Source of the DNA: Gomphosphaeria aponina SAG 52.96 = DSM 107014 | Lineage (GTDB): Bacteria; Cyanobacteriota; Cyanobacteriia; Cyanobacteriales; Gomphosphaeriaceae | Length of the DNA stretch: 56,172 nucleotides | Assembly: GCA_016903655.1 (NCBI GenBank) | Contig: JADQBC010000003.1 | Coordinates: 1-56,172, forward strand | Direction of reading: 5' to 3' | Part shown: positions 22,032 through 51,635 of the stretch, piece after piece | How the letters are laid out: every line of letters starts with the position of its first letter | How positions within the stretch are numbered: position 1 is the stretch's first letter | The notes under the pieces: generated by a model | Database searches by the model: none | Told to the model about the DNA's origin: nothing | The model's input: the letters and a program-made list of their open reading frames with translations, nothing else | Translations under genes and position numbers: made by a program

Positions 22032-22337
22032 GTCGCTGTAGCACTGGCTTAAAAAACCTTAGCTTCTCACCTGTTTAAGTAATTAGACAAAATTAATTAC
22101 ATGGGTGAGGGCGGGTTTTGAACAATCAATTTTTGTTGTGCCACATAGGTTATCCCGCTGGCCCGCCCCTACAGAAATTCTGTAAATAATTTTGTCCACC
22201 TGTTTAAATACTAGCAACAGAGCTACAAGCTGGCATTATGCACCTGTAGGTGTTATGACAAAAATAACGTTAAATGAGCTGGTGCAAGTGAAGGTTTGCT
22301 AAAGTTTAGTAAGCTTTAGTGAGGTTTTTGCTTGCAC
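22032..22337 (-). ncRNA. Truncated omegaRNA/HEARO scaffold (copy B), interrupted by an insertion
   Basis: Reverse complement aligns with 47912-48088 and carries the ACGTTA...ACC...TGC...GCCAG...GCTCT...TTAAACAG...CCAGTG pattern. Confidence 0.78.
22075..22207. mobile_element. 133-bp TTAA-bounded MITE-like element with an internal REP-like palindrome
   Basis: Inverted near-copy of 52436-52568; absent from the homologous omegaRNA at about 48041. Confidence 0.82.
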
Positions 22338-47486: not shown

Positions 47487-47888
47487 ATGAGAATGTTGCA
47501 CACAATGCTCCGTGTTGGCAATTTAGAAGAATCCCTCAAATTTTACTGTGATATCCTGGGAATGAAATTATTGCGCCAAAAAGACTACCCAGGAGGAGAA
47601 TTTACCCTGGCTTTTGTCGGTTATGGAGATGATTCGGACCACACAGTAATTGAATTAACCTATAATTGGGGCGTGGAGCAATATGACTTGGGAAATGGTT
47701 ACGGTCACATTGCCCTGGGGGTAGATGATATTTACGCAACTTGTGACAAAATCAAAGCCCTTGGGGGTAAAATTACCAGAGAACCAGGTCCGATGAAACA
47801 CGGTTCCACAGTAATTGCCTTTGTAGAAGATCCCAACGGCTATAAAATTGAATTAATTCAAATCAAAACCGCCCCCGTCCCCTCCTAG
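47487..47888 (+). CDS. gloA: Lactoylglutathione lyase
   Basis: [19 protein letters not shown] and [10 protein letters not shown] motifs. Confidence 0.97.
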
Positions 47889-47911
47889 GGGCGGGTTTAG
47901 CCATAAATTGT

Positions 47912-48088
47912 GTGCAAGCAAAAACCTCACTAAAGTTTAGTAAACTTTAGCAACCCTTCACTTGCTCTGGCTCATTTAACGTTATTTGGGTCATAATACC
48001 TGCAAGTGCATAATGCCAGCTTGTAGCTCTGTTGCTAATAGTTAAACAGGTGAGAAGCTCAGGTTTTTTAAGCCAGTGCTACAGCGAC
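47912..48088 (+). ncRNA. omegaRNA/HEARO scaffold, 3'-truncated (copy A)
   Basis: ACGTTATTTGGGTCATAATACC..TGC..GCCAG..GCTCT..TTAAACAG..CCAGTG pattern; stems CTGCAAG/CTTGTAG and GTTGCT/AGCGAC. Confidence 0.78.
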
Positions 48089-48381
48089 GCAACCATTATT
48101 AATAAAAGCTTGTGGTCACGGTTTCCAACAGATGACAAATGTAAACAAATACGGTTTTCCTCGCTCCAAAGCTAAACAAAAGCCTTTTGGAGGTTGGAAA
48201 ACTGGAGACATTGTTTTGCTAATTACTAAAAAGAGGGAAATCTATGTTAACCGATTACTAGCAACTAATAATCCTAGTGCATTTGAGATAAGAGTTAACG
48301 GTAAGAGAATTAAAGCCCACCCCAAAACAAATACACTAATTAAGGTGTTTGCGCTTAGATGGCTACTCTTACACGTTTTAG
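48087..48381 (+). pseudogene. iscB: IscB C-terminal fragment with frameshift
   Basis: TQPLLIKACGHGFQQMTNVNKYGFPRSKAK...WKTGDIV; terminal DGYSYTF* in the +1 frame (48358-48381); no PLMP, RuvC or HNH. Confidence 0.8.
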
Positions 48382-48493
48382 AGAGGTTTAGTAAAGTTTA
48401 GTAAGGTTTAGTAAACTATTTTGCTATCTAGTCGCACCTCTCCCCTAATTGAAATTCAACGGGACTTTAGCGTGAGGTTTTTGCTTGCACCAC

Positions 48494-49321
48494 TTACTTA
48501 TAACCATTAGAACCTTGATAAATCCGTTGTTTTTGCTCCAAACTGATGTGACTCCCCACAGGTAAACGTGGATTATCTGCATACTCCTCCTTGACTCGAG
48601 GAGGAGAGGAAGGGATTGACTCATGGTCTACAGTAAAAGGAGAGTGGTGACGGATAAAATTATTACCATGGAGACTGTACTCATGTTCTGGGAGAGACAA
48701 ACGACTGTGGGGAAAGACAAAATCATGGACTACAGGGTCATAAGCTAATACTTCCCCACTCTCAATGCGATAGATCCAGCCATGAAGGGCCAATTTTCCT
48801 TGACGCACTTTGGAGCGAATAACTGGATAAGTATGAAGGTTTTCTAACTGATTAAGAACATTCTCCGCTACAGTAAGTTCTAACAGTTCCATCCCCTCAA
48901 AATCACCATAATTATCCTTCACTAACCGCCGCGTAGCTTCCGCTTGTTTCAGCCACTCATACACCAAAGGCATTTCTGCTGCCAAACTTTCCAATTTCAA
49001 TAAACCTTTCATCGCCCCACAATGGGAGTGACCACAAACAATTACTTGCTCAATCTCTAAATGATGTATAGCATATTCCACTGCTGCCCCTTCTCCCCCA
49101 TTGGTAGCCCCAAAAGGCGGTATAATATTCCCAGCATTGCGAATTACAAACAATTCCCCCACTTCCGCTTGGGTAATTAAATTAGGGTCAATGCGAGAGT
49201 CAGAGCAAGTAATAAACAAAATCCTGGGTTGTTGACCGTGAGATAATTCTTCAAATAGTTCTTTATGAGAACTGTAGTAACCTGTCTGAAACTTTTGCAG
49301 ACCATCAATTAATTTTTTCAT
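48494..49321 (-). CDS. ccaA: Beta carbonic anhydrase, carboxysomal CcaA/IcfA type
   Basis: CSDSR, RNAGN and HSHCGAM motifs; C-terminal extension ending in QRIYQGS. Confidence 0.9.
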   Translation of the reverse strand: MKKLIDGLQKFQTGYYSSHKELFEELSHGQQPRILFITCSDSRIDPNLITQAEVGELFVIRNAGNIIPPFGATNGGEGAAVEYAIHHLEIEQVIVCGHSHCGAMKGLLKLESLAAEMPLVYEWLKQAEATRRLVKDNYGDFEGMELLELTVAENVLNQLENLHTYPVIRSKVRQGKLALHGWIYRIESGEVLAYDPVVHDFVFPHSRLSLPEHEYSLHGNNFIRHHSPFTVDHESIPSSPPRVKEEYADNPRLPVGSHISLEQKQRIYQGSNGYK

Positions 49322-49466: not shown

Positions 49467-50504
49467 ATGATTCAAATTCTTTTAGTTGTGGTTATTGTCT
49501 TGTCTGGTTCTGCAATCTGTTCTGCCTCAGAAACAGCATTATTTTCCGTTTCTGAACTCAAAGTTAGACAGTTAGCCCAATCAAAAACCCCCGCAGCTTT
49601 AGCACTGTTAGAAATTCGCCAACACATGAACCGCCCCATCACAACCATAGTGGTTTTAAACAATATTTTTAATATCATTGGCAGCATTGTCATCGGTGGT
49701 TTAGCCACTGATATTTTAGGGGATGCTTGGTTAGGTTTATTCTCTGGTATGCTCACATTTTTAATCATTGTCTTTGGAGAAATTCTCCCCAAAACTATCG
49801 GAGAAAGATATGGGGAAAAAATAGCAATTCTGATCGCTCTACCTGTTAAATTTTTAACTCTCATCTTTACCCCCATTGTCTGGGTAATGGAAAAAGTAAC
49901 AGCTCCATTTACTCAAGGGGAAAAACTCCCCACCACCAACGAAGCAGAAATCAGACTTTTAGCCCGAATAGGTCATAAAGAAGGAGCAATTGAAGATGAC
50001 GAAGCAGAAATGATTCAGCGAGTCTTCCAGTTAAATGATTTGACTGCTGCTGATTTAATGACTCCACGAATTATTATCACTTATCTTCGTGGTAATTCAA
50101 CTTTAGCTGAGTGCCGACAAGAGATAATCGCCTCCCAACATACCCGCATTTTAGTGATAGAAGATTCCATCGACCATGTATTAGGCATTTGCTTAAAAGA
50201 TGAATTACTCACCGCCATGATTGAAGGGAAAAATGAGCAGAAAATTAGGAATTTAACTCGCCCTGCTAAATTTGTCCCAGCAACTGTCAGCTCTGATAAA
50301 CTTCTCAAAAACTTCCAACAAACTCACGAACATTTAATGGTGGTCTTAGATGAATATGGGGGAGTTTCAGGGGTGGTGAGTTTGGAGGATGTGCTAGAAG
50401 TTTTAACAGGAGAAATTGTTGACGAAACCGATCAAGTAATTGATCTCCAACAAATAGCCCGCAAACGCCGAGAACGTCTTTTACAATCAATGGAGAATGG
50501 TTGA
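49467..50504 (+). CDS. CNNM/DUF21-CBS (hemolysin-family) protein
   Basis: SASETALFS, FGEILPK, MTPR and LDEYGG...LEDVLE.LTGEI motifs. Confidence 0.92.
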   Translation: MIQILLVVVIVLSGSAICSASETALFSVSELKVRQLAQSKTPAALALLEIRQHMNRPITTIVVLNNIFNIIGSIVIGGLATDILGDAWLGLFSGMLTFLIIVFGEILPKTIGERYGEKIAILIALPVKFLTLIFTPIVWVMEKVTAPFTQGEKLPTTNEAEIRLLARIGHKEGAIEDDEAEMIQRVFQLNDLTAADLMTPRIIITYLRGNSTLAECRQEIIASQHTRILVIEDSIDHVLGICLKDELLTAMIEGKNEQKIRNLTRPAKFVPATVSSDKLLKNFQQTHEHLMVVLDEYGGVSGVVSLEDVLEVLTGEIVDETDQVIDLQQIARKRRERLLQSMENG

Positions 50505-50648
50505 TGGTTGATAGTTGATGGTTGATGGTTGATGGTTGATAGTTGATAGTTGATGGAGAATGGTTGATAGTTGATAGTTGATGGTTGATGGTTGATGGTT
50601 GATGGAATACAATTATCTATCAAATATGAACTATGAACCATCCAACCA
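50497..50648. repeat. STRR tract (TGGTTGA/TAGTTGA)n with a short inverted tail
   Basis: Between convergent genes; supplies the CNNM stop codon. Confidence 0.92.
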
Positions 50649-51635
50649 TTATCCATCAAGCACCTGAGTTTGCCCAGTAGTGACAGCAAAGCGAGCAGCA
50701 TCAGCAACTAAGAGGGCATAATAACTAGCAGAAGGGGAGACATATAAAGGTTTGCCCTCCCATAAATAATCTAAAACCATCTCAGTATCTTGCACAAACA
50801 AACCCCGACGAGGAACAACTTCAATAGGAGTTATTTCCTCACCCCGCACTAAAGTACCCTTTTCCCCCGCAAAAATTAAAGTTCCCTCATCGCCATGTAA
50901 CTCAAAAGTCCGATCGCCTTGCCAAAAATTTTCCCCTTTGCCATAGATTACATCTGCAATCAACCCATTAGTAAAACCCAGTTGCGCAGCACAAAGACAG
51001 GAGGTATAGTATCCAGACTCAGGAGCATCCCAAAAACGTGCTTGACAGTTAACAGTAGCCACACTCCCAAATAAATCAGTAAGACGATGAATACGGGAAA
51101 CTGCTGCAGTCAAAGGAAACCCAAACAACTCCTGGTGATAAGTCCAGCGACGCGGGGCAGGGCGCTGAGGAGTTATAGTACTATAACGAGCATAAAAAAC
51201 CTTGCCAATGGCTGGCAAATACTGACGGATTGCTTGATGGACACCTCCCAACAACTCGATATGTTCCACGTGCAGCAGTTTATTTTGCTTTTGGGCTAAA
51301 CTCATCAAAGCTGCTGCTTCTCTCAAGTTGAGACTGAGGGGATATTCCACCACCACGTGCTTAAGTGCTTCGAGGGCTGCACGGGCAATAGTACCATGAT
51401 CTCGATTTACCGTACAAATAACGATTAAATCCAAATTAGAATCATTAACCAACTGCTGCCAAGAGTTAACAGCAGGTACAGAGTAAGTTTGACAGAAAGT
51501 GGCTAAATTTTCTGGACTATTGCCACTCACAGCTAATAAAACACTTCGCGGCGAATCTTGTAACGCTTTTGCTCTTTGACTAGCAGCATATCCTGTCCCA
51601 ACTAAACCCACCTTCAATGGCTCTGTGAAAGTCAT
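50649..51635 (-). CDS. bvdR: Biliverdin reductase (Gfo/Idh/MocA family)
   Basis: VGTGYAA, KHVVVEYPL, LHVEHIELLGGVHQAI and RWTYH..LFGFP motifs; ATG 51635 after AGGAG. Confidence 0.88.
   Translation of the reverse strand: MTFTEPLKVGLVGTGYAASQRAKALQDSPRSVLLAVSGNSPENLATFCQTYSVPAVNSWQQLVNDSNLDLIVICTVNRDHGTIARAALEALKHVVVEYPLSLNLREAAALMSLAQKQNKLLHVEHIELLGGVHQAIRQYLPAIGKVFYARYSTITPQRPAPRRWTYHQELFGFPLTAAVSRIHRLTDLFGSVATVNCQARFWDAPESGYYTSCLCAAQLGFTNGLIADVIYGKGENFWQGDRTFELHGDEGTLIFAGEKGTLVRGEEITPIEVVPRRGLFVQDTEMVLDYLWEGKPLYVSPSASYYALLVADAARFAVTTGQTQVLDG

Follow-up and report, generated by a model that had tools for sequence, protein, structure and literature searches.

A dead omegaRNA-iscB copy in Gomphosphaeria aponina and its relatives share ends with a non-GG IS607 subfamily

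Introduction

Two groups of described mobile elements come closest to the locus presented here. ISC elements, the known carriers of iscB and its omegaRNA, have canonical hairpin-type ends according to the accessible text of PMC4810608 and of Meers 2023 (10.1101/2023.03.14.532601). IS607 elements, as portrayed in the available portion of Chen 2018 (PMC6188088), end in short, often helically phased direct repeats and an imperfect inverted repeat that lies at different distances from the two termini, and target duplication is absent. The accessible part of PMC4058570 describes IS607 ends in similar terms, and a GG core is given for the described IS607 elements in the available text of PMC13565253. 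In Meers 2023 TnpB, but not iscB, is associated with a serine resolvase; this survey, which looked at neighbouring genes, would miss non-autonomous elements that are moved in trans. An IscB element with IS607 ends was not found in the literature searched, i.e. in the accessible main texts.

Here we analysed a stretch of 56,172 nucleotides (the window), which is contig C134 of the source assembly of Gomphosphaeria aponina (3.67 Mb, 146 contigs, 76% complete). A first-pass annotation of the window had described a 579-bp IscB/omegaRNA mini-element that is bounded by perfect terminal inverted repeats.

Results

The window element is an internally deleted omegaRNA-iscB copy

The remnant of an iscB gene is located on the plus strand at 48089-48391 and corresponds to approximately residues 326-424 of intact relatives, with 89% identity over residues 326-412 of intact IscB and 1-nt insertions near 48353 and 48375. 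The IscB C-terminus annotated at first pass is thus real, except for its DGYSY motif, which is out of frame after the insertion near 48353. On its own the remnant gave no protein-family match. Its intact relatives are cyanobacterial and exhibit RRXRR and HNH domains and a split RuvC, two of them (P0002 and P0008) reaching 472 and 469 bits, respectively, on NF040563 (cut-off 175). Comparison with the 1,557-1,560 bp of loci L072 and L074 revealed that the window copy, having 529 bp, has lost ~1,030 bp at a junction between 48088 and 48089. The deletion took the 3' end of the omegaRNA and iscB codons ~1-325, i.e. all nuclease motifs, and the window copy is a dead, internally deleted copy of an omegaRNA-iscB element of ~1.56 kb.

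The omegaRNA (HEARO) scaffold that had been recognised inside the segment occupies 47912-48088 on the plus strand and is 3'-truncated by the internal deletion. A covariance-model check against HEARO (RF02033) detected it with an E-value of 2.4e-6 and 40.7 bits, which is below the gathering score of 83 bits. Three sister copies in the same assembly gave 64.8-69.4 bits, and their alignments, beginning with position 1 of the model, set in exactly at the 19-mer with which the element starts; a sister copy matches RF02033 with an E-value of 8.8e-14, and all five own-genome copies stay below the gathering score. The first seven bases of the 19-mer pair with positions 50-56 in 93% of the cells in an alignment of eight sequences, and covariation in the first two scaffold helices is weak, being equally high in 32 of 500 shuffles. 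At the omegaRNA-side end helix P1 and a stable hairpin are formed. We rejected an Rfam alignment that starts at 47877, as its hairpin is borrowed from a host repeat and the three sister copies start at the 19-mer. A promoter scan yielded no signal above chance. Among L068, L073, L075 and L076, three intact copies were also observed to have small palindromic elements inside the omegaRNA, and a related palindromic element is the insertion site of L076.

The element ends within a host repeat

A metagenome scan resulted in 68 loci, nine of which are intact and close to the window element (82-87% amino acid identity, 8 distinct sites; as they were drawn from two assemblies they are not independent). 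All nine start with a sequence resembling the 19-mer and finish at CACCTC ~50 nt past the iscB stop. Sister copies on C8 and C127 share this end, and the copy on C31 as well as a second copy in the window are truncated earlier than this common end. In the window element the common downstream end corresponds to 48434-48440, with 48438-48440 being the last bases. Since the next 20 nt (48441-48460, plus strand) continue a host repeat, with 15/20 and 14/20 identity to the repeat copies on C92 and C29, respectively, and the end matches that of the relatives, we delimit the element as 47912-48440, i.e. 529 bp. The 579-bp segment described at first pass consequently extends too far, with 48441-48490 being outside the element.

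As annotated previously, the element lies between two convergent host genes, gloA (glyoxalase; 47487-47888, plus strand), which is located upstream in the same orientation as the omegaRNA, and ccaA (beta-carbonic anhydrase; 48494-49321, minus strand). It is inserted into a dispersed palindromic repeat of the host, 48 copies of which share the left arm in the assembly. The left part of the repeat is found at 47886-47911 (plus strand), and its last ~16 nt would serve as omegaRNA guide. The two closest repeat copies (C92 and C29) have the same spacing, and the right arm of the repeat is missing at the window site. The absence of a target-site duplication, also noted before, was borne out. A DNA search of 40 relatives, where matches were mostly to gloA, retrieved no empty gloA-ccaA site from close relatives. 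We rejected 48441-48475 as the relic of a canonical IS605 end, given that no other copy has it and that its first 20 nt are host repeat.

Three further observations concern repetitive DNA in the window. The last codons and the stop of gloA fall in DNA that resembles the host repeat (47860-47911). A second copy of the family, located at 22032-22337 on the minus strand, consists of the omegaRNA end only, lacks iscB and is interrupted by the host palindromic repeat. Short tandem repeats of the AACCATC type are located between two genes at ~50430-50710 and appear as repetitive ORFs.

The 19-bp inverted repeat is confined to the window copy

The perfect inverted repeat emphasised in the first-pass annotation comprises 19 nt (47912-47930 and 48472-48490) with arms 541 nt apart and is beyond chance: the window contains no second such pair at a distance of up to 600 nt, and 0 of 20 shuffles gave one. 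The CTAAAG reported to continue both arms does so as well, on the right arm only after a 2-nt insertion. The exact 19-mer has six matches in the assembly, five element starts and the right arm, which is located 31 bp outside the true downstream end. The right arm is absent from all nine intact relative loci and from the four sister copies in the assembly, and even with up to four mismatches the reverse 19-mer was not detectable in the nine loci. The proposal that each end kept one arm of a common hairpin is not supported, as the right arm sits outside the element. The DNA upstream of the 19-mer is different in every element copy. Judged from these alignments, the 19-mer forms both the scaffold's 5' end and the end of the element and is not a guide.

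The ends consist of phased repeats

The omegaRNA-side end (47912-47961, plus strand), which on the minus strand is equivalent to an IS607 right end, opens with the GT of the target and contains four AAACCT-like motifs in 10-bp phase. The true downstream end (48379-48440, minus strand) begins with GAGGTGC on the minus strand and likewise has four 10-bp-phased motifs, its last bases being the other half of the GTC target. Lag-10 identity at the two ends of the family is 0.59 and 0.64, compared with 0.17-0.43 at other lags, and this level was reached by 0/5000 and 1/5000 shuffles, one representative end being shuffled in each case. The motifs are inverted between the ends, point inward and lie at unequal distances from the termini; a left-end profile finds right ends in inverted orientation with E-values of 0.0025-0.039.

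Canonical cyanobacterial IscB elements finish in a C-rich/G-rich hairpin followed by RTGA. A subterminal hairpin with RTGA/GTGG downstream of iscB is present in these canonical relatives, but in none of the ten family ends shown. Full-length relatives of the window element, for which ordinary IS605 hairpin ends had been considered at first pass, thus do not have such ends; a weak AT-rich subterminal hairpin is possible in some of them.

Autonomous IS607 elements have the same termini

To compare the family with IS607 elements we took 60 of 118 IS607 tnpA matches, from 10 genomes with related IscBs, resulting in 62 loci including two from the host's own genome. Six of the 62 begin with GAGGTG(C/T) and end with GGTT-N5-TTGCAC. 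The minus strand of the window element begins with GAGGTGC and ends with GGTT-N5-TTGCAC, so that termini and spacing are as in these six partners (L247, L249, L250, L251, L253, L255). Each partner encodes TnpA(S) and TnpB, and all were drawn from three genomes of a single genus, other than that of the host. Two partners that were tested on the IS607 transposase model (NF033518) scored 184-188 bits (cut-off 110), and the six TnpA proteins form one clade with a support of 100.

The similarity reaches beyond the terminal motifs at the downstream end, as the first 54 nt of the minus strand of the window element are identical to the left end of L247 at 44/53 nt. All ten family ends tested align best exactly at the IS607 left terminus with scores of 41-65; 23 canonical IscB ends used as controls (L059 was not extracted and L120 mis-extracted) scored 25-38, their positions being scattered, and the maximum among shuffles was 36-38. 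At the omegaRNA end the likeness goes no further than the terminal GGTT-N5-TTGCAC of the partner, local alignment not being above shuffles. The IS607 left ends matched by the family sit directly upstream of the serine tnpA, and the iscB of the family is antisense to the tnpB of the partner, the same antisense geometry as reported for ISC versus IS605 in the accessible part of Kapitonov 2016 (PMC4810608). L242 and L252 were discarded as partners since their left-end motif matched only via flanking repeats. Together with L209 and L213, the six elements represent a cyanobacterial IS607 subfamily that is autonomous and has termini of a non-GG type (GA...TTGCAC).

None of 134 loci, most of them with iscB, contains a transposase in cis, flanks of 1.5-2.5 kb being covered where contigs allowed, and the same loci gave no Y1 hit. 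The host's own genome, the assembly of which is 76% complete, yielded no partner with such ends. Its one complete IS607 tnpA (C130) has GG-type ends and does not belong to the partner clade, and two other tnpA genes are cut by contig ends; the C130 element (G000, L136) is complete and GG-ended, with tnpA intact and tnpB frameshifted. Using the motif-array pattern on 401 genomes we obtained matches in five other genomes, none of them beside a transposase or iscB. The sole iscB adjoining a tnpA(S) is L211 (G051), which looks like a partner-clade IS607 element inserted inside a frameshifted iscB; an end swap could begin with an insertion of this type.

Family and partners share a GTC/GAC target

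The target comprises 3 bp, GTC on the iscB strand and GAC on the IS607 strand, and is split without duplication; one target base is common to both junctions, and empty sites keep the 3 bp. For two partner insertions the sequence of the empty site is GAC, in 5/5 and 3/3 genomes, respectively. A third partner site has four diverged orthologues, one with GAC, two with GAA and one unalignable. On the IscB side, the own-genome orthologue of the L069 site reads GTC, and restoration of GTC insertion points gives plausible frames at L071 and L073; the L068 orthologue is uninformative on the empty site. The closest repeat copies differ at the insertion point corresponding to the window site, C29 reading GTC and the second-closest copy, C92, ATC. 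A GG dinucleotide is absent from termini and target of the family, and the NF033518-encoding partners likewise have no GG. According to the accessible text of 10.1101/2023.11.20.567912 CboTnpA(S) integrates with non-matching core dinucleotides, making a non-GG target chemically plausible. As the target is GAC/GTC and the partners are also devoid of GG, the family is not a canonical GG-type member, but works like IS607 and shares its ends with a non-GG subfamily.

Related IscB lineages also lack the canonical end

In a quick tree of 67 IscBs 19 rows, including the window family, form one group with a support of 86 among canonical-ended relatives (IscBs of <370 amino acids, those with <70 nt downstream and duplicate proteins were omitted; L040 and L077 are long branches). 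This one group takes in every row of the tree whose ends are non-hairpin. Judged by eye, the canonical end is absent from the 16 of the 19 rows with DNA. Sister IscB lineages (L166-L173, L189 and L190, together with L041 and L045) exhibit repeat-type ends with N-GAC...G-GAG junctions, and several of their elements terminate within the ribosome-binding site of a host gene, a few bases ahead of its start codon. A search of five genomes with the right-end pattern revealed no autonomous partner of the sister lineage, and none of the IS607 loci clearly matched its ends (best score 43).

Discussion

Non-IS605 ends, phased repeats, termini that match IS607 and an identical target make it most likely that the family consists of non-autonomous IS607-type IscB elements. 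We are confident that the window element is best explained as a dead 529-bp omegaRNA-iscB copy with the ends of an IS607 subfamily, probably mobilised by a serine recombinase in trans, the right arm probably being the relic of a second copy. Capture by a recombinase-type mobilisation system, one of the options raised at first pass, thereby gains support from the phased end repeats and from both termini and the target being common to IS607 elements.

Based on the known IS607 mechanism, TnpA(S) dimers supplied in trans would coat the phased motifs and excise the element as a double-stranded circle, restoring the GTC site, and the circle would integrate at a new GTC. The IscB of intact copies would take the upstream flank as guide, with a TAM predicted from the target site to begin with GTC, and would cut the emptied site, which would promote restoration and drive homing. 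Cutting of the emptied site and its restoration have been shown for IS605 IscB and IS607 TnpB, as described in the available text of 10.1101/2023.03.14.532601 and 10.1101/2023.11.20.567912.

The right arm is part of a 27-bp match to the omegaRNA-side end at 48464-48490 on the minus strand (profile positions 1-25, E 0.012, with a 2-nt insertion), 3 bp from the stop of ccaA. This segment was likely left by a second, inverted copy: insertion at a GTC on the opposite strand would have been followed by the loss of all but the first 27 bp. The arm could also have originated from template switching, gene conversion by the element's own left end or an assembly chimera, with the IS607-type reading of the family being kept. 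Such an origin, which we regard as unlikely, would be in line with the absence of the rest of a second element, with the missing right arm of the host repeat and with an assembly in 146 contigs. However, the match stops exactly at the first base of the element without extending into the left flank, and on its own strand the arm is preceded by the GT junction typical of insertions. Moreover, the 2-nt insertion sets the arm apart from all five copies, and an assembler would not add one.

It is improbable that a Y1 (HUH) TnpA still moves the family, with atypical ends and a GT/C variant of the GT/GA target. The omegaRNA end retains a GT start and a stable hairpin, ISC elements insert at GT/GA (accessible text of PMC4810608), Y1 genes are present in the host's own genome and the weak AT-rich subterminal hairpin possible in some relatives would also fit. 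The downstream end, however, is devoid of the C-rich/G-rich hairpin and the RTGA of canonical relatives and matches IS607 left ends located directly 5' of a serine tnpA.

The first-pass suggestion that the 579-bp segment is a true TIR mini-element, mobilised in one piece by a transposase (DDE-type) that reads TIRs, is highly improbable. The repeat is perfect, far above chance and stops exactly at the first base of the element, yet it is a single instance, the right arm occurring in 0/9 intact loci and 0/4 sister copies, and an undamaged normal end lies 31 bp inside the right arm with host-repeat DNA in between. Target duplication is absent, and a scan of 185,579 genomes for the exact 19-mer gave only two matches, both in unrelated organisms and without element context, which we took as chance. 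A TIR mini-element is therefore not real as a class and already largely refuted. We give practically no credence to the 19-mer being a fixed guide against the element's own opposite end, which has sequence complementarity in its favour: in three sister copies the 19-mer begins at HEARO position 1, pairing of its initial 7 nt with positions 50-56 (93% of cells, 8 sequences) makes it the conserved 5' strand of the first scaffold helix, the upstream flank, which differs between all copies, occupies the guide position instead, intact copies have no opposite end of that kind and the window copy has lost its nuclease.

The preferred reading, a serine-recombinase-mobilised family, gives the locus its significance, the window copy itself being dead and its perfect inverted repeat of little interest. 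The family is non-autonomous, carries IscB and has both its ends and its target in common with a non-GG IS607 subfamily. As both termini and the target are common with defined autonomous IS607 elements, the pairing lends itself to direct tests with named parts. IscB nucleases with a GTC-type TAM are predicted from it, and an IS607 subfamily without a GG core is exposed. A broader scenario, which we put forward tentatively and would not yet assume, is that one cyanobacterial IscB lineage swapped its Y1/IS605 ends for IS607 ends and co-diversified with several TnpA(S) subfamilies, the TAM being retuned for each partner (GTC here, GAG in the sister lineages, which land in ribosome-binding sites). 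If true, this would constitute a third transposase-nuclease pairing and would make IscB nucleases with new, short TAMs available, alongside a non-GG IS607 subfamily in which recombination takes place over one common base.

Among known systems, TIR-bounded MITEs and TnpB elements with DDE transposases (PMC10691335) resemble only the look of the window copy, since the repeats are not the termini of the family, the pair is not multicopy and there is no target duplication.

The likeness to ISC2 and IscB-omegaRNA elements (PMC4810608; 10.1101/2023.03.14.532601) is more extensive and includes an RRXRR/HNH IscB, a HEARO-type scaffold upstream that starts from a GT junction, the absence of a cis transposase and of target duplication, and antisense end-sharing with a TnpB-carrying element. 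In contrast to those elements, however, the ends that the family shares are those of serine-recombinase IS607 and not of Y1 IS605 elements, the downstream G/C hairpin is absent, 10-bp-phased repeats are present at the ends, and the target is GTC rather than the GT/GR or N/ATGA of ISC.

With IS607 elements (IS607, IS1535, ISC1926, CboIStron; PMC6188088; 10.1101/2023.11.20.567912) the family has in common inverted phased direct repeats at unequal terminal distances, the lack of both TIRs and target duplication, and the two termini of elements encoding an NF033518 transposase and TnpB. It differs from them in its cargo, which is an antisense omegaRNA-iscB instead of tnpA-tnpB, and in its non-GG termini and target, GAC with one shared base, a feature that its autonomous partners display likewise.
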